64,000 bases of DNA from Anaeromyxobacteraceae bacterium (GCA_035455425.1 DATIFE010000207.1:5637-69636); one strand, 5' to 3'; numbered from the stretch's first letter, positions 23,771 to 41,558 are shown. A program made the numbers and translations. The notes: generated by a model from the letters alone, not told the origin.

Positions 23771-23795
23771 TTCTCGGCTCCCCCGGGAGGCGACC

Positions 23796-24419
23796 TTGAA
23801 CGCGATGAGCGAGAAGGAGCTCCTCCGGAAGGAAGCCATCGGCCGCGCGGCCGCCAAGCTCTTCGACGAGAAGGGCTACCTGGAGACCAGCCTCAAGGAC
23901 ATCTCGGCCGAGGCGGGCGCCAGCAAGGGCGCCATCTACTACTACTTCTCCAGCAAGCACGAGATCCTGTTCTTCATCCTCGACACCTACATGGACAGCC
24001 TCCTCCACGGGCTGGAGGACGAGCTGCGGGGCCTGCCGCCCGGCGTGGCGCGGGTCGAGTACATCACCCGGCGCCACCTGTCGCTCTACAACAACCGGGT
24101 CCCGGAGGCGAAGGCCCTCCTGGTGGACGCCACCAACCTTCCCAAGAAGGACTTCCGGATCGTCGCCGGCAAGCAGAAGCGGTACGCGGGCATCCTCGTC
24201 GACGCGCTGTCCGAGTACTTCGGCAGGAGGATGCCGCCGGTCCACCTCAAGGCCATCGCCTACATCCTCTTCGGGATGTGCAACTCGGTCATGCACTGGC
24301 ACGACCCCGAGGGGCCCATCAAGCTCGATGAGCTCACCGAGATGTGCGTGAACATCTTCCTCCGAGGAACGGCCCATTACTTCGGGGCGGGCGGCCGCCG
24401 GAGGGCGGAGGGCGCATGA
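23796..24419 (+). CDS. TetR/AcrR family transcriptional regulator
   Basis: 207 aa. The N-terminal HTH is AAAKLFDEKGYLETSLKDISAEAGASKGAIYYYFSSKHEIL. The start is TTG 23796 (5 nt after GGGAGG) or ATG 23805. The stop overlaps the next gene's ATG (ATGA at 24416-19). Confidence 0.9.
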   Translation: MNAMSEKELLRKEAIGRAAAKLFDEKGYLETSLKDISAEAGASKGAIYYYFSSKHEILFFILDTYMDSLLHGLEDELRGLPPGVARVEYITRRHLSLYNNRVPEAKALLVDATNLPKKDFRIVAGKQKRYAGILVDALSEYFGRRMPPVHLKAIAYILFGMCNSVMHWHDPEGPIKLDELTEMCVNIFLRGTAHYFGAGGRRRAEGA

Positions 24420-25375: not shown

Positions 25376-25430
25376 GCGCGGGCCCGCGGCCGCGGGCCCG
25401 GCACGAGCGACCACAGCCCGGAGAACCCCG

Positions 25431-26399: not shown

Positions 26400-26409
26400 G
26401 GGAGGGCTC

Positions 26410-27423: not shown

Positions 27424-27447
27424 GAACGGGATGGGAGACCGAGACCG

Positions 27448-28230
27448 ATGAGCGCGGGCGCGAGCGAAGGTCCGATCCTCCGGTGCGACGGCGTCGGCCT
27501 CTCCTTCGGGAGCGTCCAGGCCCTCTCCGACATGACCTTCGAGGTGGCCCGCGGGGAGTTCGTCAGCATCATCGGCCCGAACGGCGCCGGGAAGACCAGC
27601 GTCATCAACACCATCACCGGCTTCTACCGGCCCACGCAGGGGCGCATCCACTTCAAGGGGCGGGACATCACCCGCCTGCCGCCGCACAAGGTGAGCCGGG
27701 CCGGGATCGCCCGGACCTTCCAGAACACCGAGCTCTTCGCCGGGCTGACGGTCCTGGAGAACCTGCTCGCGGCCCGGCACATGTACCTCAAGTCCAACAT
27801 CCTCTCCTGCGCGCTCTACTACGGGCTGGCCGAGCGGGAGGACATCGAGGCCCGGCAGGTCGTCGAGGACATCATCGACCTGCTCGAGATGGAGGCCATC
27901 CGCAAGCAGGAGGTGGGGACGCTCCCCTATGGGCAGCGGAAGCGGGTGGAGCTCGGGCGGGCGCTGGCCCTGGAGCCGGAGCTCATCCTGCTCGACGAGC
28001 CCACGGTGGGGATGAACCTGGAGGAGAAGGAGGACATGGTCCGCTTCATCCTCGACGTCAGCGAGGAGAAGGGGACCACCATCGTGCTGGTGGAGCACGA
28101 CATGGACATCGTGATGGACATCTCCGACCGGGTCATCGTGTTCGACTTCGGCACGAAGATCGCGGAGGGGACCCCCGCCCAGATCAAGACCCACGACCGG
28201 GTCATCCAGGCCTACCTGGGAACGGGGTGA
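27448..28230 (+). CDS. livG: branched-chain-amino-acid-type ABC transporter ATP-binding protein (LivG-like)
   Basis: 260 aa with Walker A GPNGAGKTS, the LivG-specific insert (RHMYLKSNILSCALYYG), signature YGQRKRVELGRAL and Walker B LILLDEP. Confidence 0.9.
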   Translation: MSAGASEGPILRCDGVGLSFGSVQALSDMTFEVARGEFVSIIGPNGAGKTSVINTITGFYRPTQGRIHFKGRDITRLPPHKVSRAGIARTFQNTELFAGLTVLENLLAARHMYLKSNILSCALYYGLAEREDIEARQVVEDIIDLLEMEAIRKQEVGTLPYGQRKRVELGRALALEPELILLDEPTVGMNLEEKEDMVRFILDVSEEKGTTIVLVEHDMDIVMDISDRVIVFDFGTKIAEGTPAQIKTHDRVIQAYLGTG

Positions 28231-28253
28231 CGCCTGCTCCTCGAGCGCCGACC

Positions 28254-30197
28254 ATGGCCGACCTCGACACCTACCCCAAGCTCCTGATCCGGAACCGCCA
28301 GACGTCGGGCGACCGGGTGGCCCTGCGCCGCAAGGACCGGGGGATCTGGAAGAGCTACACCTGGAGCGACTCCTGCGAGCAGGTGCGCCTGCTCTGCCTG
28401 GGACTGGTGGCGCTGGGCCTCCGGCCCGGCGACAAGGTCGGCCTCATCGGCGACGACGAGCCGGAGGGCTTCTGGGCCGAGGCCGCCATCCAGTCGGCGG
28501 GGGCGGCGGTGGTGGCGATGTGGAGCGACTCGATCCCATCCGAGATCGCCTACGTCCTCCAGCACTCCGACGCGCGATTCGTCATCGCCGAGGACCAGGA
28601 GCAGGTCGACAAGCTCCTGGAGATCAAGGATTCCGTCTCCGGGGTGCAGAAGGTGATCTTCTGGGACCGCAAGGGGATGCGGCGGTACGACGACCCCATC
28701 CTGCTCGGCTTCGACGCGCTGCGGAGCCTGGGGAGGAGCCACGGCGAGGCCCACCCCGGCGCCTTCGAGGACCTGGTGGCGCGGACCCGCGGCTCGGACG
28801 TGGCGCAGATCTCGTACACCTCCGGGACCACCAGCCTCCCCAAGGGGGCGGTCCTCACCCACGACGCCATCCTGGCCTCCGCCCGGCGGATGCAGGAGAC
28901 CTGCCCCCTCGCGCCGGGCGAGGACGTCATCACCACCCTGGCCACCGCCTCGGTCTTCCACTCCTGGTTCGCGGGCTACAACTACATGAGCCGGGTGGTC
29001 ATCAACTTCCCGGAGGAGCCCGAGACCCTGATGCAGGACTTCCGCGAGATCTCGCCGCGGTTCCTGCTCATCACCCCGCGCCAGTGGGAAAGCCTCTCCT
29101 CGATGACGCAGACGCGGATCGGCGACGCCGGCCTCCTGAAGCGCTCCGCCTACCGGCTCTTCCTGCCCGTCGGCTACCGGGTGGCGGACTGGCGCTCCCA
29201 GGGCCGGGCCGTTCCCCTCGGGTGGCGGCTGCTCCACGCGCTCGCAGACCGGATCGTCTTCGCCCCGCTCCGCGACAAGCTCGGCGTCACCCGGACGCGG
29301 TATCCGTTCACCGGCAGTGCGTTCCTGAGCCCGGACTTCTTCCGGTTCTTCCAGGCGGTCGGCATCAACCTGCGCCAGATCTACGGGAGCACCGAGGCGG
29401 GCGTGGTGAGCATGCACCGCGAGGACGAGATCGACAACCACAGCGTGGGCCGGATCTGCCGCGGTGCCGAGGTGCGGATCTCCGAGGCCCAGGAGATCCT
29501 GGTGCGCGGGCCCAGCGTCTTCTCCGGGTACCACAAGGATCCGGAGAAGACCGGGCAGGTCATCCGCGACGGCTGGTTCCACACCGGCGACTCGGGCCAC
29601 GTGGGCGAGCGCGGGCACCTCTACTACCAGGACCGGATCGACAACCTCGACGAGCTCCGCGGCGGGCACCGCTACGCCCCGGCGTACATCGAGGGGAAGC
29701 TGAAGTTCAGCCGGTACATCCAGGACGTGATGGCCGTCGGCGGCAAGGACCGGGACTTCCTGTCGGTCATCATCAACATCGACTTCGACAGCATCGGCAA
29801 GTGGGCCGAGGCCCGCCGCCTCTCCTACACCACCTTCGCCGACCTCTCGCAGAAGGAGGAGGTGGGCGAGCTCATCCGGGGCGACCTGGACCGCGTGAAC
29901 CAGGTGCTCCCCGCGCCGGCGCGGGTCCAGCGCTTCGTGCTGCTGCCCAAGGAGTTCGACGCCGACGAGGGGGAGCTGACCCGGACGCGCAAGCTCAAGC
30001 GGAAGTTCCTGCAGGACCGGTACCGCGAGCTCATCGACGCCATCTACCAGGGAAGGCCCGAGGTCCCCATGGTGACCGAGGTGCGGTACCGGGACGGCCG
30101 GAGGGGAAAGGTCACGACGAGCCTCAAGGTGCGGTCGGTGTCCCCGGCGCGGGGCGAGCTGCGCGAGCTGGCTCCGGCCCGCGAGGCGAGGGCCTAG
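28254..30197 (+). CDS. AMP-dependent synthetase/ligase (long-chain acyl-CoA synthetase-like) embedded in the ABC operon
   Basis: ATG 28254 within ORF 26472..30197 gives 647 aa. Motifs include the AMP-binding motif I YTSGTTSLPKGAVLTH, YGSTEAG, GWFHTGDSG and the C-terminal RTRKLKRKF. Confidence 0.85.
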   Translation: MADLDTYPKLLIRNRQTSGDRVALRRKDRGIWKSYTWSDSCEQVRLLCLGLVALGLRPGDKVGLIGDDEPEGFWAEAAIQSAGAAVVAMWSDSIPSEIAYVLQHSDARFVIAEDQEQVDKLLEIKDSVSGVQKVIFWDRKGMRRYDDPILLGFDALRSLGRSHGEAHPGAFEDLVARTRGSDVAQISYTSGTTSLPKGAVLTHDAILASARRMQETCPLAPGEDVITTLATASVFHSWFAGYNYMSRVVINFPEEPETLMQDFREISPRFLLITPRQWESLSSMTQTRIGDAGLLKRSAYRLFLPVGYRVADWRSQGRAVPLGWRLLHALADRIVFAPLRDKLGVTRTRYPFTGSAFLSPDFFRFFQAVGINLRQIYGSTEAGVVSMHREDEIDNHSVGRICRGAEVRISEAQEILVRGPSVFSGYHKDPEKTGQVIRDGWFHTGDSGHVGERGHLYYQDRIDNLDELRGGHRYAPAYIEGKLKFSRYIQDVMAVGGKDRDFLSVIINIDFDSIGKWAEARRLSYTTFADLSQKEEVGELIRGDLDRVNQVLPAPARVQRFVLLPKEFDADEGELTRTRKLKRKFLQDRYRELIDAIYQGRPEVPMVTEVRYRDGRRGKVTTSLKVRSVSPARGELRELAPAREARA

Positions 30198-30198
30198 C

Positions 30199-30987
30199 GT
30201 GCTGACCCTGAGCAACGTCGAGGTCAAGTACGCCGGGGTCATCCTGGTCCTCCGCGGCGTGTCCCTCCAGGTCCCGGAGGGGAAGATCGTGTCGCTGCTG
30301 GGCAGCAACGGCGCCGGCAAGACCACCACCCTCAAGGCCATCTCCGGGCTGCTGCGCACCGAGCTGGGCGAGGTGACCGCGGGCGCCATCGAGTACCAGG
30401 GCCGCCGCATCGACAGGCTCGACCCCGAGCAGATCGCCAAGATGGGGATCATCCAGGTGATGGAGGGGCGGAAGGTGCTGAAGCACCTGACCGTCGAGGA
30501 GAACCTGCGGCTCGGCGGCTACATCCGGCCCAACGGCGAGGTCCGCCGGGACCTGGAGCGGGTCTACGGGTACTTCCCCCGGCTGCGGAGCCGCCGCAAC
30601 GCGGTGAGCGGGTACCTCTCCGGCGGGGAGCAGCAGATGATGCTCATCGGGCGCGCCATGATGGCCCGGCCGAGGCTCATGCTGCTCGACGAGCCGTCGA
30701 TGGGGCTGGCGCCGCTGATCGTCCGGGAGATCTACGAGATCGTGCGGCGGCTTAGCGCCGAGGAGAGGACCACCATCCTCCTCGTCGAGCAGAACGCCAA
30801 GGCCGCCCTCGCCACCAGCGAGCTCGCCTACGTGCTGGAGAACGGCCGCGTGGTCCTCGACGGCCCGGCCGCGGCCCTGGCCGACAACGAGGACATCCGC
30901 GAGTTCTACCTGGGCCTCGGGAAGCTCGGCGAGAAGAAGAGCTACCGGGCGGTGAAGACGTACAAGCGGAGGAAGAGATGGCTGTGA
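30199..30987 (+). CDS. livF: branched-chain-amino-acid-type ABC transporter ATP-binding protein (LivF-like)
   Basis: 262 aa with a GTG start one nt after the previous stop. It has Walker A GSNGAGKTT, signature LSGGEQQMMLIGRAM and Walker B LMLLDEPS. Confidence 0.9.
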   Translation: MLTLSNVEVKYAGVILVLRGVSLQVPEGKIVSLLGSNGAGKTTTLKAISGLLRTELGEVTAGAIEYQGRRIDRLDPEQIAKMGIIQVMEGRKVLKHLTVEENLRLGGYIRPNGEVRRDLERVYGYFPRLRSRRNAVSGYLSGGEQQMMLIGRAMMARPRLMLLDEPSMGLAPLIVREIYEIVRRLSAEERTTILLVEQNAKAALATSELAYVLENGRVVLDGPAAALADNEDIREFYLGLGKLGEKKSYRAVKTYKRRKRWL

Positions 30988-30999
30988 CGGGAGGCTGAG

Positions 31000-31872
31000 G
31001 TGGAGCTCTTCGGAATGCTGGTGATCTCCGGCGCGATGAACGGGGCCATCTACGGCCTCGTCGCGCTGGGGTTCGTCCTCGTCTACAAGGCCTCGGCGGT
31101 CCTCAACTTCGCCCAGGGCTACATGCTGCTCCTCGGCGCCTACCTCTTCTGGTTCTCCAGGGTCACGCTGGGCCTCCCGCTCGTCGCCGCCCTGCTCCTC
31201 TCGGTCGGGGCCGGGTTCCTGGTCGGGATCCTCATCGAGCGCCTCACACTGCGCCGGCTCATCGGGCAGCCCCTGATCTCGATGATCACGGTGACCATCT
31301 TCCTCTCGCTGGTGCTGGAGGGGCTGGTCTCGATGATCTGGGGCACCTACCCGCTCCAGCACGTGACCGTGTTCCACGACAGCACCATCCGGCTCGGCCG
31401 CCTGGTCCTCACCACCCAGAGCCTGCTGGCCTTCGGGCTGGCGCTGTCGGTCGCGGGCGCGCTCATCGCCTTCTTCCGCTTCACGCGGATGGGGCTGGCG
31501 ATGCGCGGCGTGGCCGAGGGCCACCAGATCGTGCAGAGCATGGGGATCAGCGTCCGCAGGATCCTCAGCCTCTCCTGGGGGCTGGCCGGGATCGCCGCCA
31601 GCATCGGCGGGATCCTCATGGGGGGCACGCTCGGGTTCCAGCTCGGCCTGAGCCAGATCGGGCTGCTGGCCATCCCCGCCGCCTTCATCGGCGGCCTGGA
31701 GTCGCCCGAGGGCGCCGTCCTGGGCGGCCTCCTCATCGGCCTGAGCGAGAGCATCGTCTCGGGCTACGTCGGCAACGCCGCCGGGGTCCCGGCGGCGTTC
31801 GTCATCCTCATCGCCACCATGCTCTTCAGGCCCTACGGGTTCTTCGGCCTGGAGCGGATCGAGCGGGTGTAG
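31000..31872 (+). CDS. livH: ABC transporter permease (LivH-like)
   Basis: 290 aa, polytopic. The opening MNGAIYGLVALGFVLVYKASAVLNFAQG is typical of LivH/BPD_transp_2. Confidence 0.9.
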   Translation: MELFGMLVISGAMNGAIYGLVALGFVLVYKASAVLNFAQGYMLLLGAYLFWFSRVTLGLPLVAALLLSVGAGFLVGILIERLTLRRLIGQPLISMITVTIFLSLVLEGLVSMIWGTYPLQHVTVFHDSTIRLGRLVLTTQSLLAFGLALSVAGALIAFFRFTRMGLAMRGVAEGHQIVQSMGISVRRILSLSWGLAGIAASIGGILMGGTLGFQLGLSQIGLLAIPAAFIGGLESPEGAVLGGLLIGLSESIVSGYVGNAAGVPAAFVILIATMLFRPYGFFGLERIERV

Positions 31873-31876
31873 CGCC

Positions 31877-32947
31877 ATGGCGAGGGTACCGTTCTATCCG
31901 CCCAGCGGCGTCTACGCGGACAGCTACGCGAAGGACATGCGGATCCTCAAGACCGGCACCCAGCGGTTCCTGACGGTCGCCGGGCTGGTGCTGCTGTTCG
32001 CCCTGCCGCTCATCCCCGGGCTCAACGGCAGCTACTACCTCCGCCTGATCATCGGGGCCGGCATCACGGTGATCGCCTGCCTGGGCCTCAACATCCTCAC
32101 CGGCTACTGCGGCCAGCTCAACGTGGGCCAGTCGGCGTTCGTGATGGTGGGCGCGTTCGCCTCCGGCATGCTGACCGCCTTCCACGGTTGGTCGTTCTGG
32201 GCCTCGGTGGTCCCGGGCGGCCTGGCCGCCGCGGCAGTCGGGGTCCTCTTCGGCATCCCCTCGGTGCGGCTCAAGGGCCTGTACCTGGCCCTCACCACGC
32301 TGGGCGCGCAGATCATCCTCACCTGGGTCGCCCTCTACGGCATCACCGTCACCGCCGCCGGCTTCTCGGTGAGCCCGGTGCGGCTCGGCCCGGTGGTCTT
32401 CAACACGCCGCAGAAGTTCTACTACCTGGCCATGGGCTTCACGGTGGTGATGACCTTCGTCGCCCGGAACCTGATGCGCTCGAGGCTGGGGCGGGCCTTC
32501 ATCGCCATCCGGGACAACGACCGGGCGGCGGAGGGCATGGGCATCGACATCTTCAAGTACAAGCTGCTGGCCTTCGCCATCTGCACCTTCTACGCCGGGG
32601 TCGCCGGTGCGCTGCTGGTCCACTACATGATGTGGGCCCAGCTCGAGTCCTTCACCCTCCAGGACTCCGTCTGGTACCTGGCCATGATCATCGTGGGGGG
32701 GCTGGGCAGCATCGAGGGGACGGTCTTCGGGGTCCTCTTCATCACCGTCCTCAAGGAGCTGGTCCTGGTGGTCGGCCCCATGGCCCAGGGCAAGCTCTCC
32801 TTCCTGCCGATGGGAGCGGCCAGCGGGCTCCTGCTGGTGATCATCGGCAGCATCGCCATCTTCTTCGGAGTCCTCGAGCCGCGCGGCATGGCCCATCGCT
32901 GGAGCCTCATCAAGGCGTTCTACCGGCTGTGGCCGTTCGGCTACTAG
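31877..32947 (+). CDS. livM: ABC transporter permease (LivM-like)
   Basis: 356 aa, polytopic. It has LNILTGYCGQLNVGQSAFVMVGAF and LKGLYLALTTLG, typical of LivM. Confidence 0.9.
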   Translation: MARVPFYPPSGVYADSYAKDMRILKTGTQRFLTVAGLVLLFALPLIPGLNGSYYLRLIIGAGITVIACLGLNILTGYCGQLNVGQSAFVMVGAFASGMLTAFHGWSFWASVVPGGLAAAAVGVLFGIPSVRLKGLYLALTTLGAQIILTWVALYGITVTAAGFSVSPVRLGPVVFNTPQKFYYLAMGFTVVMTFVARNLMRSRLGRAFIAIRDNDRAAEGMGIDIFKYKLLAFAICTFYAGVAGALLVHYMMWAQLESFTLQDSVWYLAMIIVGGLGSIEGTVFGVLFITVLKELVLVVGPMAQGKLSFLPMGAASGLLLVIIGSIAIFFGVLEPRGMAHRWSLIKAFYRLWPFGY

Positions 32948-33039
32948 GTGCGGGCAGTGCAGGGAATCGCCGTCGCGTCGAGTCGAAGCCGGTGTCGTCG
33001 AACGTCGCCGTGGAACCCATGGAGTCCAAGGAGGCTGCG

Positions 33040-34275
33040 ATGAGGAAGGGAACGTCTCGATCCGCCGTGCTGGCGCTGGCGGCGATGGTGTCGCTGCCGG
33101 CCGCCGCGGCGGCCCAGGCCGGGGAGGTCGTGGTGGGCAACATCAGCGCCATGACCGGACCCACCAGCGGGACGCACATGATGTGCCAGTCCGGCTCCCG
33201 CGAGTACCTCGAGTACCTGAACCAGCAGGGCGGCATCGCCGGCAAGGACGGCAAGGTGAAGGTCAAGTACCTCGCCTATGACTCCCAGTACGTGGCGACC
33301 AAGGCCAAGGACGGCTTCTCGCGGCTGCTCGAGCAGAAGATGGCGGTCTGGACCCAGTGCGCCTCGGCCCACTCCGACGCGCTCATCCCGGACTACGAGG
33401 CCGCCCAGGTGCCGCTGGTGACGGGGTCCCACGGGATCGCCAGCCTCTACTCCGACTGGGCCTACGGGAACTACCACTCGGGCATCGCCAACATGATCCG
33501 CACCTGGATCGTGTGGGAGAAGGCGGTGTGGGAGAAGGCGGGCAAGCCGGGCGGGACGCTGGTCCTCGGCACCGTCACCAGCGACGAGCCCTTCGTGCCC
33601 CTGGCCCTGTGGGACATCGACGCCTTCGCCCAGCAGCAGGGGGTCAAGCTGGTGAAGGAGACCTTCCCCAAGGGGACCACCGACGCCGGCCCGCAGCTCC
33701 TGCGGCTCAAGGACGCCGGGGTGAAGCAGATCTACGTCATCGCCTCCGCCACCGGCGCCGTGGTGGTGCTGAAGTCCGCCAAGGCGCTGGGGCTCAAGAT
33801 CCCCATGACCCAGTGCGCGGCCGCCACCCTGGGCGACGTCATCGCCCTCGGGGGGCCGGAGCTGGCCGAGGGATACCAGGGCGAGTACTTCTTCGAGCCC
33901 ATGTCGAAGGACCCGGCCCTGGGCGGCTCGCCGGGGCTCAAGCTGGCCCGCGAGCTCTGGGCCAAGAACCACGGCAAGGAGGCGCCCAACGACATGTACG
34001 TCAACGGCGTCCTCTCCGGGATGGTGATCGCCGAGGGCATCCGCCATGCGCTCGACGCCGTCCCCCCCGGCAAGCTCACCGGCGCGGCCATCAAGCACGG
34101 GCTGGACCAGGTCAGCGGTTTCACCGGGATGGGGCTGACGCAGCCCATCACCTACGCCAAGGACGACCACATCGGGCAGAAGCAGGTCCGGTACTGGGTG
34201 GTGGTGAAGAAGGGGTACGTCGAGCCGGTGAGCGACTGGATGCCGACCACGACCTACCGGATCCCGAGGAAGTAA
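33040..34275 (+). CDS. ABC transporter periplasmic substrate-binding protein (type I PBP, Leu/Ile/Val-binding family fold)
   Basis: ATG 33040 lies 5 nt after AAGGAGG, within ORF 32188..34275. A signal peptide (AVLALAAMVSLPAAAAAQA) is followed by VVVGNISAMTGPTSG, typical of LivK-family binding proteins. Confidence 0.85.
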   Translation: MRKGTSRSAVLALAAMVSLPAAAAAQAGEVVVGNISAMTGPTSGTHMMCQSGSREYLEYLNQQGGIAGKDGKVKVKYLAYDSQYVATKAKDGFSRLLEQKMAVWTQCASAHSDALIPDYEAAQVPLVTGSHGIASLYSDWAYGNYHSGIANMIRTWIVWEKAVWEKAGKPGGTLVLGTVTSDEPFVPLALWDIDAFAQQQGVKLVKETFPKGTTDAGPQLLRLKDAGVKQIYVIASATGAVVVLKSAKALGLKIPMTQCAAATLGDVIALGGPELAEGYQGEYFFEPMSKDPALGGSPGLKLARELWAKNHGKEAPNDMYVNGVLSGMVIAEGIRHALDAVPPGKLTGAAIKHGLDQVSGFTGMGLTQPITYAKDDHIGQKQVRYWVVVKKGYVEPVSDWMPTTTYRIPRK

Positions 34276-34381
34276 GGGGCCGGCCAGGCCGCGAGCGGCT
34301 CGCGCGGGCGACCGGGCCGCGACCGCACCTGCCTCACCCGGGTGCGGCCGCGGCTCCGGGGCCCGGTAAGGAGAGAGGACC

Positions 34382-34966
34382 ATGGTCGAGATCCGGTTCC
34401 GGGCACGGGTGGACGAGGAGAAGTGCGTCAGCTGTCCCATGTGCGAGAACGTCTGCCCCACCGCGGCCATCACGCTCCCCGCCAAGGGCGCCAAGGCGGT
34501 GGTCGTGGACGAGAAGTGCGTCGGCTGTCCCAACTGCGCCGGCGTCTGCCCGGTAGACGCCATCGACCTGGTGCTCCGCGAGAAGCCGCTCCTCCTGGGC
34601 GTGGACGCGAGCCAGGTGGACGAGGCCCGGCTCCTGGACCTGTGCCGCAGGGCCAACCTCCACCCGCAGCAGTGGCTCTGCCTCTGCACCGGCACGCGGG
34701 TGCGGGAGGGCGCCGCCGCCGTCCTCCAGGGCGCCACCTCTCCCGAGACGGTCGCCCTCATGACCGGGACGCGGTCGGGCTGCACCGTCTACTGCCTCCA
34801 GCCGACGCTTCGGCTGCTCAAGGCCCACGGGGTGAAGGTGGTCCAGCCGGAAGGCTACCGCTGGTACGACACCTCGCAGACCTGCTGGGACGTCCCCGAG
34901 GAGGTGCGGAAGAAGTATCCGGGCCACTTCCTCGAGGAGGACCTCCAGGTCTTCCGGAAGTTCTGA
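34382..34966 (+). CDS. 2x[4Fe-4S] ferredoxin domain fused to a BFD-like [2Fe-2S]-type Cys motif domain
   Basis: 194 aa with CVSCPMCENVCP and CVGCPNCAGVCP. These are followed by WLCLCTG...(31 aa)...GCTVYC, a CxC...CxxxC arrangement reminiscent of BFD-like domains. AAGGAGAG RBS upstream. Confidence 0.8.
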   Translation: MVEIRFRARVDEEKCVSCPMCENVCPTAAITLPAKGAKAVVVDEKCVGCPNCAGVCPVDAIDLVLREKPLLLGVDASQVDEARLLDLCRRANLHPQQWLCLCTGTRVREGAAAVLQGATSPETVALMTGTRSGCTVYCLQPTLRLLKAHGVKVVQPEGYRWYDTSQTCWDVPEEVRKKYPGHFLEEDLQVFRKF

Positions 34967-34993
34967 GGACGCCCCCAGGCGAAGGAGAGCGCC

Positions 34994-36415
34994 ATGCCGA
35001 GCCAGCCCACCCCGTCGTTCGTGCGCAGGTCGATCTACGGCCCCGAGCCGAAGCAGCGCGCCGCGTCGCTCCCCGGCCTCGTCGGCCTCGAGATCCGGAG
35101 CCTCTTCCCCGACGTCCCCGAGGCCCTCTACGTCGAGGGCGGGGACTTGTCCGCCGTCCGCGAGGCCACGCGGAACGCCCTGCGGGACGTGCGGATGGAC
35201 ATGATCCGGGAGGGGGACTCGGTCAACATCCTCGCCTCCCAGTACGGCTTCACGCTGATGGGCGGCTACGCCTACGCCGAGATGCTGAAGACCATCAAGG
35301 ACGTGGTCGCGGAGCGGACCGGCTGCAGGAGGATCCGCCTGCGGGTGTGCACCGGGTTCCGGATCCGCGAGCCCGACGAGATCATCCAGCACTACGAGCT
35401 CGACCGGTACTTCCCCCATGCCGCCTCGGCGGTGCGCCCCATCGACAAGGGGGTCGCCATCCAGACGGACATCGGGACCCTGTACGGCGTCGCCAAGGTC
35501 TACGACGCCGACTGGATCATCCACGCGCACCACGGGGAGCTGCGCGAGCTGGACATGCACCGGATGATCAACCGAGCGCACAAGCCGTTCGCCATGTCCT
35601 ACGCCCGGATGGAGACGCGCGCGGTGGCCCACATGAACTTCGGGCCCCGCAGCTCCAACTTCATCGCCAAGGTGATCTTCGATTCCCCCTTCGTGCAGAG
35701 CAAGTTCACCTTCGGCTGCTTCCTCCTCACCTCGCCCCAGGGCATCACCGGCGTCGCCGCCGGGAGCGACCTCGACGCGCTGGATCGGCGGCTCATGCGG
35801 ATCGGCTTCCAGTCCTACGGGAAGATCCGGGAGCTGTTCGCCGAGATCAAGGAGTGCATCGCGGTCCTCGATGCGACCGGCGAGCCGCGCTACATGGTCG
35901 GCGGCGGGATGACCTTCGGGAACGCCACCGAGGCCGAGCTCGACCTCTTCGACCTCGAGGTCATGCCGGTGAGCCTCGGGTTCGGGATCTACGAGCGCCC
36001 CCCGAGCCAGCCCAAGGCGAAGTCGGTCAACCCGGCCCTGCGGGCGCTGGTCATCAACCACATGTGGCTCGGCGTCCCGCAGCTCGAGCTCGCCACGCAC
36101 ATCCCGACCTTCGCCGTGGGGCAGGACATGGCGGCGCTGCTCCGGGACGATCCCATGAACCACGACTTCATGCGCCACTGCGTCACCGCGGAAAATCTGG
36201 AAACCGCGATGAAGTTCGCCCGCGCCATCGCCCGGACCGATCACGTCATGGTCTTCGACGGCAGCTTCGGGAAGATGACCGTGAGCCCCTCCCTGGCGGA
36301 ACACCTGACCGCGCGCGCGCCCGAGGTGAGCCGGCGCGTGGACCAGGAGCTCATGCCCAAGTGGCTGCGGCAGCGGGGCATCGACCCGGCCGCCGCGGCG
36401 GAGGTGGCGACGTGA
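34994..36415 (+). CDS. hypothetical protein (473 aa), no family recognisable by inspection
   Basis: ATG start with GGAGAG upstream. The composition is globular and protein-like with very high GC3. The stop overlaps the next start (GTGA). Notable motifs are RIRLRVCTGFRIREPDEII and DADWIIHAHHGELRELDMH. Confidence 0.75.
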   Translation: MPSQPTPSFVRRSIYGPEPKQRAASLPGLVGLEIRSLFPDVPEALYVEGGDLSAVREATRNALRDVRMDMIREGDSVNILASQYGFTLMGGYAYAEMLKTIKDVVAERTGCRRIRLRVCTGFRIREPDEIIQHYELDRYFPHAASAVRPIDKGVAIQTDIGTLYGVAKVYDADWIIHAHHGELRELDMHRMINRAHKPFAMSYARMETRAVAHMNFGPRSSNFIAKVIFDSPFVQSKFTFGCFLLTSPQGITGVAAGSDLDALDRRLMRIGFQSYGKIRELFAEIKECIAVLDATGEPRYMVGGGMTFGNATEAELDLFDLEVMPVSLGFGIYERPPSQPKAKSVNPALRALVINHMWLGVPQLELATHIPTFAVGQDMAALLRDDPMNHDFMRHCVTAENLETAMKFARAIARTDHVMVFDGSFGKMTVSPSLAEHLTARAPEVSRRVDQELMPKWLRQRGIDPAAAAEVAT

Positions 36416-37257
36416 CCCGCCCCGCTCGCAGGGCCTGGCCCCGGCCGGCCATCGACGTCCGGGAGGAGATTCTGCGGTCGGTCCGCGCCCCCCGCGTCGC
36501 CGCCGCCATCGTGGCCGACCAGGCCGGCGTCATCGCCGGCGTTCCCTCGGCGACGCGGGAGGCGGCGCAGCTCGGCCTCTCGCGCGTGGAGATCGTCGGC
36601 GAGGGCAGCGCGGTCGAGGCGGGCGACGAGATCGCCCGGCTGGCCGGGACGCCGAGGCAGATCGTGATGGCCGAGGACGTTCTCATCGGAGCACTGGCCA
36701 AGCCGTCCGGGATCGCCACCCGGGCGCGCGCCTTCGTGGCGCGGACCAACGGCCGGCCCCGGGTGGTCTCGGGCGGCTGGAAGAAGATGCCGGGAGCCCT
36801 GAAGGAGATGATCCGGAGCGCCGTGTCCGCGGGCGGGGGAGAGCCGCGCATGGTGCCGGGGCCGTTCGCCTACCTGGACAAGAACTACGTCGAGCTCCTG
36901 GGCGGCATCCGCCAGAGCCTGGCGGCGGTGGCGCACCTCGAGGACCTGGCCAAGGTGGTGCAGGTGAAGGGGCGCTACGCCGACGTGGCCACCGAGGCCT
37001 GCCAGGCGGCCGAGCACGGTGCGGACGTGGTCTTCGTCGACACCGGCCGGGCCGAGGACGTCTCGCGCGCCACCGCGGAGCTGGTCCGGCGGGGGCTGCG
37101 GGCCCGGGTGCTGGTGGCGTTCGGCGGGGGGGTGGCCCTCGAGGACCTGGACGCGCTCCGCGGGCTCGACCTCGACATCCTCGACATCGGGCGGCAGATC
37201 GTGGACGCGCCCCTGCTCGACATGCGCCTGGAGATCGTCGAGGAGCGCCGGGCATGA
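36412..37257 (+). CDS. quinolinate/nicotinate-nucleotide phosphoribosyltransferase-fold protein (NadC/ModD-like, divergent motifs)
   Basis: GTG 36412 within ORF 34342..37257 gives 281 aa. The order of segments follows NadC/ModD as I recall them: GVIAGV...EGSAVEAGDEIARLAG, AEDVLIGALAKPSGIATRARAFV, SGGWKKMPGALKEMIRSAVSAGGGEPRM, LDKNY and VVQVK...ADVVFVD. Confidence 0.65.
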   Translation: MTRPARRAWPRPAIDVREEILRSVRAPRVAAAIVADQAGVIAGVPSATREAAQLGLSRVEIVGEGSAVEAGDEIARLAGTPRQIVMAEDVLIGALAKPSGIATRARAFVARTNGRPRVVSGGWKKMPGALKEMIRSAVSAGGGEPRMVPGPFAYLDKNYVELLGGIRQSLAAVAHLEDLAKVVQVKGRYADVATEACQAAEHGADVVFVDTGRAEDVSRATAELVRRGLRARVLVAFGGGVALEDLDALRGLDLDILDIGRQIVDAPLLDMRLEIVEERRA

Positions 37258-38183
37258 AGGGCATGGACGTGGCCGACTACGACCTGATGAACAAGACCGA
37301 GCTGACGATCCGCCGGATCGCCCTGCACAACGCCGACCTGGCGCAGGTGGCCGACGCGGTGGCGGAGACCCTGGGGCTGGAGCGCGGCGACGTGCTGGTC
37401 ACCGACGTCCTCGGGGACCAGGTGGTCATCGACGTCCTGCGGCGCGGCGTCGATCCGCACGCCCTGGTGGGGAAGAGGGAGGAGCTGCAGCGGAGGCTGG
37501 GCCGGATCCCCGGCGTCGCCTGCACCGACGAGACCGAGTTCTTCTCCCGGGGGATGCTGAGCTGGATCGCGCTCGGGTCCGCCGAGGGCGAGGAGATCCT
37601 CCGGCGCTCGGAGGAGATGGCGCAGGAGATCCGGCGCCGGCTGGAGAAGACCGCCCTGGTGTTCTCGACCGGCGGCGAGGTGGCGGGCGGCCAGGTGATG
37701 GACACCAACTCGCCGCTCCTCCGCGAGCGGCTGCAGGCCGCCGGGTACGCGGTGAGGCTCGGCGGCACCCTGGGGGACGACGAGATCCTGATCGCCGCCC
37801 GGCTGGGCCAGGCCGCCGACGACGGGTACGGGCTGGTCCTCACCACCGGCGGGGTGGGAGCGGAGGACAAGGACCGCACCATCGAGGCGGTGCTCCGGGC
37901 GGCCCCCGCCGCCGCCACGCCCCCCGTCGTCCGGTACGAGCTGGGCGTGGGCCGCCACCGGCACAAGGACAGCGTGCGGATCGCGGTCGGGAAGATCGCC
38001 GGCACCCTGGTGGTGGCGCTGCCCGGCCCGAACGACGAGGTGCAGGTGGGCGTCGGCGCCCTCCTGGACGGGCTCGCCGCCGGCGCCGGCGTGGAGGCGC
38101 TGGCGGAGGGGATCGCCGCCCGGCTGCGGGAGCGGCTCCGGCAGAAGCGCGCCGGGATGGCGGGACACGGCGGGGAGCGCTGA
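37254..38183 (+). CDS. MoCF-biosynthesis (MogA/MoaB/CinA N-terminal)-like domain protein with a unique ~130-aa N-terminal region
   Basis: 309 aa. The ATG overlaps the previous stop (ATGA). The C-terminal half has ALVFSTGGEVAGGQVMDTNSPLLRERLQAAGY and LVLTTGGVGAEDKDRTIEAV. These parallel the CinA/MoaB GDELL-GxxxDTN and TGGLGPTxDD segments. Confidence 0.65.
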   Translation: MKGMDVADYDLMNKTELTIRRIALHNADLAQVADAVAETLGLERGDVLVTDVLGDQVVIDVLRRGVDPHALVGKREELQRRLGRIPGVACTDETEFFSRGMLSWIALGSAEGEEILRRSEEMAQEIRRRLEKTALVFSTGGEVAGGQVMDTNSPLLRERLQAAGYAVRLGGTLGDDEILIAARLGQAADDGYGLVLTTGGVGAEDKDRTIEAVLRAAPAAATPPVVRYELGVGRHRHKDSVRIAVGKIAGTLVVALPGPNDEVQVGVGALLDGLAAGAGVEALAEGIAARLRERLRQKRAGMAGHGGER

Positions 38184-38186
38184 CCG

Positions 38187-38276
38187 ATGGCGGACGGCCA
38201 GGGCGCACCCATGGCGCAGGACGGGAAGTCCATCGACGACGAACGCCCGCAGGGCGAGAGCAGGGAGGCGCCGTGA
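38187..38276 (+). CDS. possible 29-codon small ORF (MADGQGAPMAQDGKSIDDERPQGESREAP)
   Basis: ATG 38187 lies 3 nt after the upstream stop, and the TGA at 38274-76 overlaps the GTG start of the next gene (GTGA). 27 of 29 codons end in G or C, whereas the frame of the downstream gene has low GC3 here and no start codon. There is no SD and no homology evidence. Confidence 0.3.
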   Translation: MADGQGAPMAQDGKSIDDERPQGESREAP

Positions 38277-38809
38277 GCGGATCGCTCCTGGAGGAGCTCG
38301 GCTGGACGAAGTACATCGGCAAGGAGACCGGGACGTACACGGGCGAGCCGGTGCTGGCCCGGGACATCCGGCGGTACGCGCTGGCCATCGACGACCCGGA
38401 TCCCGCCTACCGGGATCCGGCCGCCGCCGGGCGATCCCGGCACGGGGGCATCGTCGCCCCCCTCTTCTACGTGACCTGGGCCGTCGGCGTGCCCGGCGCG
38501 GAGAAGAGCGCCCGGGAGCTGGGGGAGGACGGCCTGGCCACGTTCGTGGGCGTCCCCGAGATCCCCAACGTGTGGGACCTGGGGTGGGTGCGCGGCGGGG
38601 AGGAGCTGGAGTTCTTCGGGCGCGTCCGCGTGAACGACCGCGTGACGGTGCGGGGCAAGATCGTCGACATGAAGGAGAAGGAGGGGAAGAGCGGCAAGCT
38701 CATCCTGGTCACCTCCGAGTTCGTCTACACGAACCAGGACGGCGAGCGGCTGGCCACGCACCGCCTCACGATGATCGGGACGCCGAGGAAGGAGTCGCGC
38801 GATGGGTAG
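38273..38809 (+). CDS. MaoC-family dehydratase, N-terminal-type hotdog subunit
   Basis: GTG 38273 lies 5 nt after GGGAGG, within ORF 37019..38809. IRRYALAIDDPDPAYRD, IVAPLFYV and VTVRGKIVDMKEKEGKSGKLILVTSEFVYTNQDG are typical of MaoC_dehydrat_N / FAS1-DH-like proteins. Confidence 0.75.
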   Translation: MSGSLLEELGWTKYIGKETGTYTGEPVLARDIRRYALAIDDPDPAYRDPAAAGRSRHGGIVAPLFYVTWAVGVPGAEKSARELGEDGLATFVGVPEIPNVWDLGWVRGGEELEFFGRVRVNDRVTVRGKIVDMKEKEGKSGKLILVTSEFVYTNQDGERLATHRLTMIGTPRKESRDG

Positions 38810-39242
38810 CCAGGTCTTCTTCGAGGACGTGAGCGAGGGCCAGGAGATCCCGTCCCTGCGGAAGGACGTGTCCACCATCCACATCCTCATGTACGTGGCC
38901 GCGGTGTGGCTCCTGGACCGCATCCACTTCGATCACCCCTTCGCCACCCGGCGGCGCGGCCTCCCCGACGTGGTCGCCCCCGGGAACATGGGGGGCGACT
39001 ACTACGCCCAGCTCCTGAGCGAGTTCGCGGGCGAGGCGGGGCAGGTCCGGAAGATGTCCTTCCAGTTCCGCAACTTCATGCTCGCCGGGGACGTCCTGGA
39101 CGTCGGCGGCCGCGTCGCCAGGAAGTACCTGGGCGACGGCAAGGGGCTCGTCGAGCTGGAGCTGTGGATCAAGAACCAGGGCGGGGTGAACTGCGTGCCC
39201 GGCAAGGGGCTGGTGGCGCTCCCCCTCAGGGCCCGCGGCTGA
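38802..39242 (+). CDS. MaoC-like (R)-specific enoyl-CoA hydratase/dehydratase hotdog subunit
   Basis: 146 aa. The start overlaps the previous gene by 8 nt. DRIHFDHPFATRRRGLPDVVAPGNM and VLDVGGRVARKY...GLVELELWIKNQGG form the MaoC_dehydratas pattern. Confidence 0.8.
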   Translation: MGSQVFFEDVSEGQEIPSLRKDVSTIHILMYVAAVWLLDRIHFDHPFATRRRGLPDVVAPGNMGGDYYAQLLSEFAGEAGQVRKMSFQFRNFMLAGDVLDVGGRVARKYLGDGKGLVELELWIKNQGGVNCVPGKGLVALPLRARG

Positions 39243-39275
39243 CCTCCGCCCGGGGTCCGGCCGCCGGCCCGGCGC

Positions 39276-40166
39276 TCACCGGTCGCCGCGGGCGCTCTCG
39301 GCGATGGCGACCACCGCCGGGTGGCGCAGGCGCCGCTCCACCGAGATGGCGTAGAAGCGCTCGCGGATCTCCTCGGCGCGCCCGACGACGACCACGTCGA
39401 GCTGGGCGCAGATCTCCTTCTCGATCATGGCCGGGGCCGCGAAGAACCCGAGCCCGCGGGCGCCGAAGGCCTGGAGGAGCGCGTCGTCGTCGAACTCGCC
39501 CGCCACGGCGGGCTGCGCGCCCCGCGCCTCGAACCACTCCTCCAGGGCGCGCCGCAGCGCGGTGCCGGGCGCGGGCAGGAGCACCGGCGCGCCCCCGAGT
39601 GACGCCGGGAACCCCTTGCGGAGGCCTGCCATCCGCGGGGACGCCAGGAAGGTCACGCCGCACTCCCCCAGCAGGTGGCTGAAGGCCTTGACCTTGACGG
39701 ACTCGGGCGGGGGGCCGTCCGCCAGCACCACGTCGAGCTCGTGCAGCGCCAGCGAGGCCATGAGCTGCGGCAGGGGGCCCTCCTGGCAGACCAGGCGCAG
39801 GTTCTCGACGGCGGAGACGGCCGACTGGAGCAGGCGCTCGGCCACCATCTTGGGGACGACGTCGGTGACGCCCACCACCAGCGGGATCCGCTCCCGCGTC
39901 TGGACGCCCTTCAGCGCCTGCATGAGCTCGCGCCCGGTGTGGAAGATGTCGTCCGCGTACCGGAGCACGGTGCGGCCGACGTCGGTGAGCACCAGGCTGC
40001 GCCCCTGTCGCTCGAACAGCTTCTGATCCAGCGCGGCCTCCAGCGTCTTGATCTGGTTGGAGATGGTGGGCTGCGACAGGCGCAGCTCGCGGCTCGCCTT
40101 GGCGATGCTGCCCGCCCGGGCCGCCGTCCAGAAGTAGAAGAGGTGGTGGTAGTTGAGCCAGTCCAT
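39276..40166 (-). CDS. LysR family transcriptional regulator (NhaR-like)
   Basis: 296 aa. MDWLNYHHLFYFWTAARAGSIAKASRELRLSQPTISNQIKTLE is the NhaR-type HTH opening. A LysR substrate-binding domain follows. Confidence 0.9.
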   Translation of the reverse strand: MDWLNYHHLFYFWTAARAGSIAKASRELRLSQPTISNQIKTLEAALDQKLFERQGRSLVLTDVGRTVLRYADDIFHTGRELMQALKGVQTRERIPLVVGVTDVVPKMVAERLLQSAVSAVENLRLVCQEGPLPQLMASLALHELDVVLADGPPPESVKVKAFSHLLGECGVTFLASPRMAGLRKGFPASLGGAPVLLPAPGTALRRALEEWFEARGAQPAVAGEFDDDALLQAFGARGLGFFAAPAMIEKEICAQLDVVVVGRAEEIRERFYAISVERRLRHPAVVAIAESARGDR

Positions 40167-40182
40167 TCCTTCAGAATACCTT

Positions 40183-40203
40183 AGATACTCTGCAAAACTA
40201 TCT
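40183..40203. promoter_or_regulatory. LysR-type T-N11-A palindrome in the AT-rich divergent promoter region
   Basis: AGATA-N11-TATCT (40183-40203) lies in the only AT-rich stretch of this part of the window (40167-40241). It sits between the LysR gene and the divergent TerC gene. Confidence 0.4.
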
Positions 40204-40241
40204 CATTTCGGACCGGAGGCCCGCGCCCTAGACAACCCACC

Positions 40242-41204
40242 ATGGAAATCGGCATCTGGGAATGGGCGGCCTTCCTCGGGTTCGTGCTGGCGATGCTGGC
40301 GCTGGACCTGGGCGTCTTCAACCGGAAGGACCACGTCGTGCGCCCGCGCGAGGCCCTCGGCTGGTCGGCGGTCTGGGTCGCGCTGGCCCTGGCGTTCGGG
40401 GGGCTGGTATGGGCCCGCCACGGGAGCGCGCCGGCCCTCGAGTACCTGACGGGCTACGTCATCGAGAAGTCGCTCTCCATCGACAACATCTTCGTGTTCG
40501 CGGTGATCTTCGGCGCCCTGGGGATCCCGCCCCTGTACCAGCACCGGGTGCTGTTCTGGGGCATCGCCTCGGCGCTGGTCCTGCGCGGCGCCATGATCGC
40601 CGGCGGCGCGGCGCTGCTCACCCGCTTCCACGCGGTGGTCTACGTCCTGGGCGGGTTCCTGGTGCTCACGGGCGTGAAGCTCCTGCTCGTCCGCGGCGAC
40701 GCCTCCCATCCCGAGCGGAGCGCCGTGTTCCGGGCGCTCCGGCGGCTCGTGCCGGCGACGCCCCGCCTGGAGGGGAACCGCTTCTTCGTGGTCGAGAACG
40801 GGAAGCGGCTGGCGACGCCGCTCTTCTTCGCGCTCGCGATGGTCGAGCTCACCGACGTGGTCTTCGCGGTGGACTCGATCCCCGCCATCTTCGCGGTGAC
40901 ACGCGATCCGTTCATCGTCTTCACCTCCAACATCTTCGCCATCCTCGGCCTGCGGTCGCTCTACTTCCTGGTGGCGGGCCTGGTCGAGCGGTTCACCTAC
41001 CTGAAGCCGTCGCTGGCGCTGGTGCTGGTGTTCGTCGGAGCCAAGATGGCGCTGGTGGACGTGGTCGAGGTCCACCCCGCCGTGTCGCTGGGGGTGATCG
41101 TGACCATCCTGGCGGGCGGCGCGGTCGCCTCCGTCCTTCGGGCCCGGAGGGCGGAGCGCCGCCCCGTGGCCCCGGCGGCTCCCGTGCGCGCCGGGGGCGC
41201 CTGA
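40242..41204 (+). CDS. TerC/Alx family integral membrane protein
   Basis: 320 aa with EYLTGYVIEKSLSIDNIFVFAVIF and ELTDVVFAVDSIPAIFAVTRDPFIVFTSNIFAILGLRSLYF, the duplicated TerC signature. Confidence 0.9.
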   Translation: MEIGIWEWAAFLGFVLAMLALDLGVFNRKDHVVRPREALGWSAVWVALALAFGGLVWARHGSAPALEYLTGYVIEKSLSIDNIFVFAVIFGALGIPPLYQHRVLFWGIASALVLRGAMIAGGAALLTRFHAVVYVLGGFLVLTGVKLLLVRGDASHPERSAVFRALRRLVPATPRLEGNRFFVVENGKRLATPLFFALAMVELTDVVFAVDSIPAIFAVTRDPFIVFTSNIFAILGLRSLYFLVAGLVERFTYLKPSLALVLVFVGAKMALVDVVEVHPAVSLGVIVTILAGGAVASVLRARRAERRPVAPAAPVRAGGA

Positions 41205-41224
41205 GCGCCCGCCGCGAGGACCCC

Positions 41225-41530: not shown

Positions 41531-41558
41531 GGATGCGGCTCGCCCGGGCGCGGGCCCG

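Follow-up and report, generated by a model that had tools for sequence, protein, structure and literature searches.

A putative LarA-fold oxidoreductase with an iron-sulfur subunit and two cofactor-type accessory proteins, encoded by a gene module conserved across bacteria and archaea

A stretch of 64,000 nucleotides from an Anaeromyxobacteraceae bacterium (GCA_035455425.1, DATIFE010000207.1:5637-69636), hereafter the window, carries at positions 34382-38183 four tightly packed genes on the plus strand, which we consider, with slightly better than even confidence, to encode a pincer-cofactor-linked oxidoreductase system in which a LarA-fold protein is coupled to Fe-S clusters. The first gene (34382..34966) encodes an Fe-S subunit of 194 amino acids with ferredoxin character (Fd; Pfam Fer4_21, Fer2_BFD) and the second (34994..36415) a protein of 473 amino acids, X473, which has no match in Pfam or NCBIfam and for which AlphaFold2 (AF2) and Foldseek predict a LarA fold. 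The third gene (36412..37257) encodes a QPRT-like protein of 281 amino acids (Pfam QRPTase_N, QRPTase_C) and the fourth (37254..38183) a MoCF-like protein of 309 amino acids (Pfam MoCF_biosynth). An earlier sequence-only reading had proposed that these genes form one translationally coupled unit at 34382-39242 together with a possible bridging short open reading frame (ORF) and the two subunits of a split MaoC hydratase, with the 473-residue protein as its centre. As the G+C content of the window is about 73%, genes were called by their third-position GC content and not by ORF length. This frame analysis and a read-out of the junctions recovered all six genes at the coordinates claimed, including a 27-nt gap with a AAGGAGAG ribosome-binding site between Fd and X473, a GTGA overlap at 36412 between X473 and the QPRT-like gene, an ATGA overlap at 37254 between the QPRT-like and MoCF-like genes, and an 8-nt overlap at 38802 between the two MaoC-type genes. 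The Pfam and NCBIfam libraries likewise agreed with the domain calls made earlier (Fd/BFD, QPRTase fold, MoCF and MaoC).

Which of these genes are kept together outside the source genome? We fetched 80 genome loci that contain X473, one per species, from Myxococcota, Thermodesulfobacteriota, Bacillota, Acidobacteria, Chloroflexi, Spirochaetes, Bathyarchaeia and Methanomethylicia, the closest X473 being that of an Anaeromyxobacter (90% identity), probably also the genus of the window, and counted partners by tblastn with the window proteins within 9 kb of X473. Fd lies directly 5' of X473 in 75 of the 80 loci, the QPRT-like gene is present in 59 and the MoCF-like gene in 58, and where the flanks are long enough the QPRT/MoCF pair accompanies X473 in 41 of 46 cases. 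The reverse test gave the same picture: metagenome loci seeded with the MoCF-like protein contain X473 in 33 of the 35 that have at least 3.2 kb of upstream sequence. The order of the core is rearranged in some lineages, and in four loci (L015, L039, L043, L061) the QPRT-like and MoCF-like proteins are a single fusion protein of 572-595 amino acids. Only these four genes are co-conserved far above chance, and Fd, X473, the QPRT-like and the MoCF-like gene (34382-38183) are the conserved core. The proposed unit is thus real, co-conserved and uncharacterised, and X473 is its centre with the three others as recurrent partners across bacterial phyla and archaea; its six genes, however, are not the unit, since the MaoC pair accompanies the core in 11 of the 80 loci and the short ORF is a scar. 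Two loci (L027, L036) each contain two Fd-X473 pairs next to an aldehyde:ferredoxin oxidoreductase (AFOR) and a TonB-dependent receptor, with no QPRT/MoCF pair nearby.

X473 has more than 1,235 relatives in the databases (more than 1,200 clusters at 90% identity), all of them unnamed or 'hypothetical' and free of Pfam domains, and the identity between phyla is still 60-89%. Neither phmmer nor a family profile run against PDB sequences found anything. X473 and its relatives form a tight, highly conserved group that stands alone in sequence. The AF2 model, built with 44 homologues (database proteins of 60-89% identity), reached a pLDDT of 79 and a pTM of 0.86. When this model was compared with the PDB by Foldseek, the top seven matches were all LarA-family proteins with probability 1.00 and E-values of 3e-9 to 1e-7, namely the lactate racemases 2YJG and 8EZH, the malate racemases 6D6Z and 7S91, the broad-spectrum LarA structures 9EIA and 9EID and the single-histidine LarA-like protein 9Q3K; the eighth match had an E-value of 1e-2. 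The alignments span 436-518 columns with modest TM scores of 0.39-0.51 for a query that is itself a predicted model, and modest scores are expected for a hinged two-domain protein. According to the model, X473 has the two-domain fold of LarA.

The conserved residues of X473 point in the same direction. In 49 X473 sequences with identities as low as 43%, Lys197 and His213 are invariant and Thr208 nearly so, which gives the motif K-x10-T-x4-H. In an hhalign comparison with L. plantarum LarA (reference sequence identical to 5HUQ), K197, T208 and H213 fall on K184, T195 and H200 with identical spacing, in an alignment that is not significant alone; T195 and H200 do not vary within the limited set of canonical LarA homologues that was compared. 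In LarA, K184 tethers the nickel-pincer nucleotide (NPN), H200 is a nickel ligand, and H108 and H174 are the catalytic histidines of proton-coupled hydride transfer. By this correspondence, Lys197 and His213 of X473 are likely, but not proven, equivalents of K184 and H200, and are thus candidates for an NPN tether and a nickel ligand. X473 resembles LarA in the predicted fold and, in this alignment, in the spacing of the motif, and the two differ in that no sequence similarity is detectable and both catalytic histidine positions are, by the same weak alignment, replaced. In its expected mode of action X473 comes closest to a LarA-type pincer enzyme. As no sequence search places it in the LarA family and the racemase histidines appear to be absent, we file X473 as a LarA-fold relative and not as a member of that family. 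Two near-invariant histidines, H177 and H189, lie near Asp187.

The third line of evidence comes from the neighbourhood. LarB, LarC and LarE build the niacin-derived NPN. When all neighbour ORFs of the 80 loci were clustered, LarC was found beside X473 in 17, LarB in 15 and LarE in 11 loci, with representatives that exceed the NCBIfam equivalog cut-offs (LarB, LarE, LarC1 and LarC2). In 19 of the 80 genome loci such genes adjoin the module directly, and they lie beside it in 6 of 80 metagenome loci. Canonical larA is absent from 14 of the 19 lar-bearing loci and was found in only five of all 80. The gene order is LarE-LarB-LarC-Fd-X473-QPRT-MoCF in Alicyclobacillus and LarB-LarC-Fd-X473-QPRT-MoCF-MhpD-DmpF-DmpG-LarE in Aneurinibacillus, and the metagenome loci contain compact Fd-X473-MoCF-LarE-LarB-LarC operons, in which QPRT stands at one end or the other and catabolic genes do not intervene. 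The presence of lar biosynthesis genes without larA was the signature that led to the discovery of the pincer enzyme NphT, a nickel-pincer hydride transferase with an aldo-keto reductase (AKR) fold (Nat Chem 2026, PMC13524815). A His/Lys motif is the marker of pincer binding, with Lys197 and His213 as the candidate pair in X473. The fold, in contrast, is a TIM barrel in NphT and that of ornithine cyclodeaminase in a second non-LarA pincer enzyme, the NPAD-dependent ornithine cyclodeaminase (Desguin 2025, as cited in PMC13524815), and neither has an Fe-S subunit or QPRT/MoCF partners.

Unlike LarA, X473 has an obligate Fe-S partner, and this partner speaks to the type of reaction. Fd contains two CxxCxxCxxxCP motifs (Cys15/18/21/25 and Cys46/49/52/56) for two [4Fe-4S] clusters and BFD-like [2Fe-2S] cysteines at positions 100, 102, 134 and 138; Fer4_21 scores above its Pfam cut-off and Fer2_BFD at 22.3 against a cut-off of 26 in the window, and at 32.7 in L056. 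In two loci (L004 and L005, 7844-9964), in which X473 is 71-73% identical to that of the window and the remaining synteny is the same, a GltD-like NAD(P)H/FAD module of about 500 amino acids is inserted within the Fd protein, so that residues 1-32 and 36-194 of the window Fd match the two ends of a protein of 706 amino acids. The module interrupts Fd after its first [4Fe-4S] motif and is not joined to it end to end. The same module (Fer4_20 plus Pyr_redox_2) is fused ahead of the Fer4 and BFD part in L056 (8025-9983), and in L080 (7886-9286) the GltD-like module is a separate gene just 5' of Fd. The Fd of the window itself has no flavin module. Modules of the GltD/NfnB type take electrons from NAD(P)H and hand them, by way of FAD, to Fe-S clusters, and Fer4_20 with Pyr_redox_2, as also found in PreT (of dihydropyrimidine dehydrogenase), NfnAB and the small subunit of glutamate synthase, is a standard device for feeding clusters from NAD(P)H; here, however, a LarA-fold protein takes the place of the flavin, TIM-barrel or amidotransferase subunit as catalytic partner. 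We therefore read Fd as an electron-transfer subunit, and the inserted NAD(P)H/FAD module argues that X473 most likely catalyses a net two-electron reaction as an oxidoreductase and not a racemase. The 6-hydroxynicotinate reductase of E. barkeri was considered as a possible identity for X473 on account of its two [4Fe-4S] clusters and one [2Fe-2S] cluster and was set aside; no other nicotinate fermentation genes occur among the neighbours.

The two remaining core proteins resemble enzymes of nucleotide and cofactor metabolism and depart from them in a conserved manner. The QPRT-like protein has both QPRTase domains and scores 111.7 bits with the NCBIfam model nadC (TIGR00078), below the equivalog cut-off of 198.4; NadC is a type II phosphoribosyltransferase (PRTase) and ModD an uncharacterised relative. 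Residues were compared with human QPRT, in which R102, R138, K139, R161, K171, E201 and D222 bind quinolinate and phosphoribosyl pyrophosphate (PRPP), and were tallied in 55 family members. K139, R161, D222 and the glycines of the phosphate-binding loops are kept, whereas R102 is replaced by E/D, R138 by W (51 of 55), K171 by D followed by an invariant K, and E201 by K/R, a family-specific set. About half of the substrate and catalytic residues of QPRTase are therefore lost, and the pattern of replacement marks a conserved alternative site and not decay, one that probably still binds a phosphorylated pyridine-type ligand. Because of this loss, it is unlikely that the protein is a normal QPRTase engaged in ordinary pyridine-nucleotide synthesis, to which the sequence-only reading had taken it to point. 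A further difference from NadC is that the protein is always paired with, and sometimes fused to, the MoCF-domain protein.

In the MoCF-like protein, the MoCF_biosynth domain (PF00994, 70 bits) spans residues 136-271 behind an extra N-terminal domain of about 135 amino acids. The stretch TTGGVGAEDKD, which contains the TTGGxG motif, is invariant, and the acidic residues typical of MogA/MoaB, among them conserved Asp residues, are kept; the score lies below the cut-off of all equivalog models. Foldseek with its AF2 model returned MoeA, gephyrin-E and Cnx1E over about 245 columns, followed by CinA, MoaB and Mog. Enzymes of the MoCF fold adenylylate or de-adenylylate cofactors and insert metal into sulfur ligands, and the maturation of the molybdenum cofactor (Moco), with adenylylation and metal insertion on a cofactor with sulfur ligands, offers an analogy for a thiocarboxylate nickel cofactor. 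No molybdenum enzyme or Moco pathway gene was found in the conserved neighbourhood. The reading that we favour is that the pair may supply, activate or install a niacin-derived pincer nucleotide for X473. A role of the pair as a substitute for LarB, LarC and LarE was rejected, as the pair always accompanies the lar genes where these occur.

The pair also occurs elsewhere. In L129 (3396-9930), it stands behind a BcrAD/HgdC-type ATPase and two HGD-D proteins, similar to 2-hydroxyacyl-CoA dehydratase/benzoyl-CoA reductase, and X473 is missing from the 9 kb to each side of the pair. In L158 (117-9885), and also in L159 and L162, the order is substrate-binding protein, ABC transporter, MoCF-like protein, QPRT-like protein, UbiD and a protein of 558 amino acids, with no X473 within 5-6 kb. 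The 558-residue protein was tried as an X473 relative and is unrelated; it matches nothing in Pfam, and none of the other loci contains a relative.

Based on these observations, we propose that 34382-38183 may encode a four-protein enzyme system with X473 as its catalytic subunit, which most likely carries NPN at a site around Lys197 and His213. The LarA enzymes known so far take up a hydride only to give it back and are redox-neutral; X473 would instead oxidise or reduce, by two electrons overall, a carboxylic acid imported by the adjacent ABC transporter. Fd would relay electrons between the active site of X473 and an outside donor or acceptor, which may be a ferredoxin or another partner in the window organism and NAD(P)H, through the inserted FAD module, in the relatives. 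The QPRT-like and MoCF-like proteins would act as a pair, most probably to supply, activate or install the niacin-derived nucleotide cofactor. A 2-oxo acid would probably be formed, or consumed in the reverse direction, and be passed on to an E1/E2 2-oxoacid dehydrogenase and a MaoC-type hydratase in the window organism and to an MhpD-like hydratase, the aldolase DmpG and the acetaldehyde dehydrogenase DmpF in Firmicutes. The sequence-only reading had come close to this where it suggested that the genes might mature a nucleotide-derived cofactor for the 473-residue protein, an idea favoured by the LarA fold and the link to larB/C/E; the relationship to LarA and the redox wiring were absent from it.

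What might the substrate be? Beyond the core, the most frequent neighbours in the 80 loci are a hydratase or decarboxylase of the MhpD/DmpE/DmpH family (36 loci, below the equivalog cut-off), an IclR regulator (31), the transporter BenE (26), the 4-hydroxy-2-oxovalerate aldolase DmpG and the acetylating acetaldehyde dehydrogenase DmpF (24 each, both above the equivalog cut-off) and an M24 prolidase/ectoine-hydrolase-like protein (24). PFOR, AFOR, UbiD with UbiX, an AbfD/HpaB-like protein, a short-chain dehydrogenase/reductase (SDR) and an acyl-CoA dehydrogenase are rarer, and the partners in the window clade are E1/E2(/E3), CoA ligases, the MaoC hydratase and an SMP-30-like lactonase. A tblastn search of the window for meta-pathway genes found none. 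All these lower routes use up 2-oxo acids or their CoA products, and a C5 2-oxo-4-enoate or a 5-hydroxy-2-oxo acid would fit every variant. The frequent link of X473 to a lower route of the meta-pathway type in strict anaerobes points to an unrecognised anaerobic catabolic pathway. We speculate, as a hypothesis only, that the substrate could be a five-membered heteroaromatic 2-carboxylate, such as 2-furoate or pyrrole-2-carboxylate, which would be reduced and hydrolysed to a C5 2-oxo intermediate. The mass balance is right and the neighbours UbiD/UbiX, AFOR, BenE, MhpD/DmpG/DmpF and AbfD-like agree; literature searches found no support for an anaerobic 2-furoate route. The catabolic route for a pyridine or dicarboxylate that had been suggested earlier finds no direct support. 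In the strict anaerobes L012, L014, L021 and L073, a protein of the HpaB family lies near the module, in some of them with an SDR and an acyl-CoA dehydrogenase, and it is likely of the 4-hydroxybutyryl-CoA dehydratase/vinylacetyl-CoA isomerase type. An ORF of 793 amino acids ('cluster 33') was rejected as a real neighbour, being probably an antisense artefact with no Pfam match that lies opposite the PFOR gene.

A bolder version of this proposal, which we put forward tentatively and would not bet on, is a new class of pincer enzyme in which Fe-S clusters, as a one-electron chain, would load the hydride-carrying NPN of the LarA-fold protein or unload it, with net redox chemistry as the outcome. 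Such an enzyme might perhaps carry out the low-potential reduction of a heterocyclic or alpha-substituted carboxylate (2-furoate, pyrrole-2-carboxylate) to a C5 2-oxo-enoate, and the QPRT/MoeA-like pair might build, modify or covalently install the pincer nucleotide.

Several observations weigh against a pincer-linked LarA-type oxidoreductase. At the level of sequence, Pfam Lar_N/DUF2088 gave no match even at E<=5 in 49 X473 members, the family profile recovered no LarA among PDB sequences, and the same kind of search against 1.84 billion representative proteins returned 220 matches without a canonical LarA. The hhalign probabilities are 1-4%, a second profile-profile run shifts the Lys/His stretch by 3 residues, and the AF2 model is of low confidence at residues 185-191 and 214-220, which adjoin the Lys/His motif. 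The catalytic His108 and His174 of LarA align, in a weak alignment, to Arg123 and Asp187. About three quarters of the loci have no lar genes, and tblastn found none in the 64-kb window. We know of no precedent for a hydride-transfer cofactor that feeds one-electron clusters without a flavin. Finally, the QPRT/MoCF pair occurs without X473 beside the HgdC/HgdAB-like system of L129 and the UbiD of L158, and both fit a role on the substrate better than an NPN-specific role.

This last point leads to the alternative that survives best, which we regard as unlikely but serious: the nucleotide chemistry may serve to activate the substrate. The QPRT-like protein would phosphoribosylate an N-heteroaromatic or other carboxylate, the MoCF-like protein would adenylylate or hydrolyse the product, X473 would bind it in the pocket that in LarA holds NPN and the Fe-S chain would reduce the ring, all within a catabolic route close to the breakdown of a pyridine acid suggested by the sequence-only reading. 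Indeed, the pair is tied to X473 more tightly than the lar genes are, its neighbours in L129 are a set of ATP-dependent radical enzymes and in L158 it adjoins UbiD, X473 being out of reach in both, and BenE in 26 loci together with UbiD/UbiX and AFOR suggests an aromatic or heteroaromatic acid; the MoCF-like protein has moreover kept the TTGGxG motif and the acidic residues. However, the very residues with which a QPRTase holds the quinolinate carboxylate and Mg-PRPP are replaced (R102 by E/D, R138 by W, E201 by K/R), L129 and L158 are single observations, and substrate activation accounts neither for genuine larB/C/E within the same operons nor for the invariant Lys/His pair of X473.

X473 could also have kept the LarA fold and bind some other pyridine nucleotide without nickel, made by the QPRT-like and MoCF-like proteins, in which case the lar association would be secondary. 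The missing lar genes in the window and in most loci and the isolation of X473 from LarA at the sequence level would be compatible with this, and new pincer variants such as NPAD have recently been reported (cited in PMC13524815). We nevertheless hold it to be improbable, as the lar genes, where present, share one operon with X473, MoCF and QPRT and are mixed in among them, and the candidate nickel-ligand His and tether Lys are invariant.

We give still less credence to the view that X473 is an ordinary racemase or epimerase of the LarA type, a very divergent 2-hydroxy-acid isomerase, with an Fe-S protein that serves a structural, sensing or cofactor-assembly function only. It is true that every characterised LarA-fold enzyme is a redox-neutral racemase or epimerase (PMC7583248, PMC11770544) and that some LarE proteins use a [4Fe-4S] cluster (PMC9283937). 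Against this, Arg and Asp stand, by the alignment, at the positions of the two catalytic histidines that racemisation requires, Fd adjoins X473 in 75 of 80 loci, and in four loci Fd is joined to or stands beside a GltD-like NAD(P)H/FAD module, an arrangement that is sensible only for electron transfer. That there is no functional unit at all, the genes being neighbours by chance or local synteny, is very improbable and for the four-gene core already refuted: the MaoC pair, the ABC transporter and E1/E2 are confined to related delta/myxo lineages, but the core recurs in Firmicutes, Thermodesulfobacteriota, Myxococcota, Acidobacteria, Chloroflexi, Spirochaetes and Archaea, with rearrangements and fusions.

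If the pincer-linked oxidoreductase proposed here is borne out, it would widen the chemistry of pincer cofactors from hidden redox to net redox coupled to an electron chain, and two candidate proteins for handling the cofactor would join a biosynthetic pathway that LarB, LarE and LarC had been thought to complete. To our knowledge, few types of nickel-pincer enzymes are known, namely the LarA racemases and epimerases and, from 2025-2026, one AKR-fold hydride transferase and one cyclodeaminase. Our searches of the pincer-enzyme literature found no ferredoxin-linked LarA-fold protein and no QPRT/MoCF partner; those on LarA with ferredoxin, on nickel pincers from 2024 on and on the domain combination found no description of the module; and a term search of PMC13524815 returned no mention of ferredoxin or quinolinate. 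There is a real chance that the X473 module is mechanistically new. The family is spread over bacteria and archaea, occurs in Oscillospiraceae of the gut and in cultured carriers such as Aneurinibacillus danicus, Alicyclobacillus suci, Geosporobacter ferrireducens, Clostridium bovifaecis and Oscillibacter, and is labelled 'hypothetical' everywhere since no domain database recognises it.

The module of the window is embedded in a longer gene row. An unbroken, closely packed series of genes on the plus strand extends from 23796 to 39242, not from 34382 as had been assumed, and a promoter/terminator scan of 23000-41500 was empty, with no terminator-like site; with these co-directional upstream genes, the unit is probably larger than 34382-39242. 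An Rfam search of 22000-42000 found no riboswitch. The row begins with a TetR-family regulator (23796..24419; Pfam TetR_N, TetR_C_24), followed by the genes of a PDH-like 2-oxoacid dehydrogenase complex, E1alpha (24344 or 24416-25375; E1_dh), E1beta (25368-26399; Transket_pyr) and E2 (26410-27423; 2-oxoacid_dh), where E1alpha scores 370 bits with the NCBIfam model PDH_E1_alph_y against a cut-off of 394. The longest E1alpha ORF (start at 24344) runs 76 nt into the TetR gene, and an alternative ATG at 24416 behind GAGGGCGGAGGG gives an ATGA stop/start overlap with TetR, which would mean that the regulator is translationally coupled to the catabolic genes. Next comes a Liv-type ABC uptake system (27448..34275; LivG/ACS/LivF/LivH/LivM/SBP, assigned by Pfam) in the order ATPase, an AMP-binding (FadD11-like) ligase of 647 amino acids, ATPase, two permeases and a substrate-binding protein (SBP, 33040-34275), directly ahead of Fd.

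Downstream of the core lie the two MaoC-type genes, candidates for a heterodimeric (R)-hydratase of the HadAB/ChsH type, which encode a FAS1_DH_region/MaoC-N subunit of 178 amino acids (38273-38809; PF13452, 79.8 bits) and a hotdog subunit of 146 amino acids (38802-39242) with weak HadB-like NCBIfam matches, in which a 'DRIHFD' stretch, read by eye, resembles a hydratase motif. The MaoC pair, the ABC transporter and E1/E2 are clade-specific pathway genes and not part of the core. Transporter genes occur within 9 kb of X473 in 10-14 of the 80 loci and E1/E2 in 3-4; the Liv-transporter synteny of the window is shared by 10-14 of the closest loci and Desulfomonile tiedjei. E1/E2 adjoin the module in other arrangements in L005, L009, L018, L107 and L143, for instance in the Syntrophales locus L009, where E1/E2/E3 genes stand between MoCF and MaoC. 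An SMP-30/gluconolactonase-like (SGL) gene, not present in the window, follows the MaoC pair in Desulfomonile tiedjei (L081, 12534-13400) and in six other loci, in window-type clusters of Desulfomonile/Syntrophales-type lineages, and hints at a lactone as substrate or intermediate.

Between the core and the MaoC pair lies the 29-codon ORF (38187..38276, plus strand) that had been taken for a possible bridging gene. In the closest relatives, the Anaeromyxobacter metagenome-assembled genomes L001 and L003, this position is occupied by a PaaK-like CoA ligase of 424 amino acids. By blastn, positions 37904-38156 of the window correspond to the end of the L001 MoCF gene and 38215-38500 to the last 50 nt of the L001 ligase plus MaoC-N, and about 1.25 kb of the ligase region is absent from the window. 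The short ORF retains the ATG and the C-terminal '...DERPQGE' of the ligase, and the same scar is found in a 99%-identical metagenome contig (L083). The supposed bridging gene is thus what a deletion has left of a PaaK-like CoA ligase gene, its start joined to its C-terminal end. Since the stop codon of the ORF continues to overlap the GTG with which MaoC-N begins, the coupling is retained. At the end of the row, a divergent LysR-type regulator (39276..40166, minus strand; HTH_1, LysR_substrate) is also present on the 99%-identical metagenome contig and is otherwise not conserved among the 80 loci; whether it is part of the unit is uncertain. Two further genes that are not conserved with the module lie just beyond the cluster, encoding a TerC membrane protein (40242-41204) and an apiosidase-like glycoside hydrolase with a collagen-binding-like C-terminal domain (41559-43205, minus strand).

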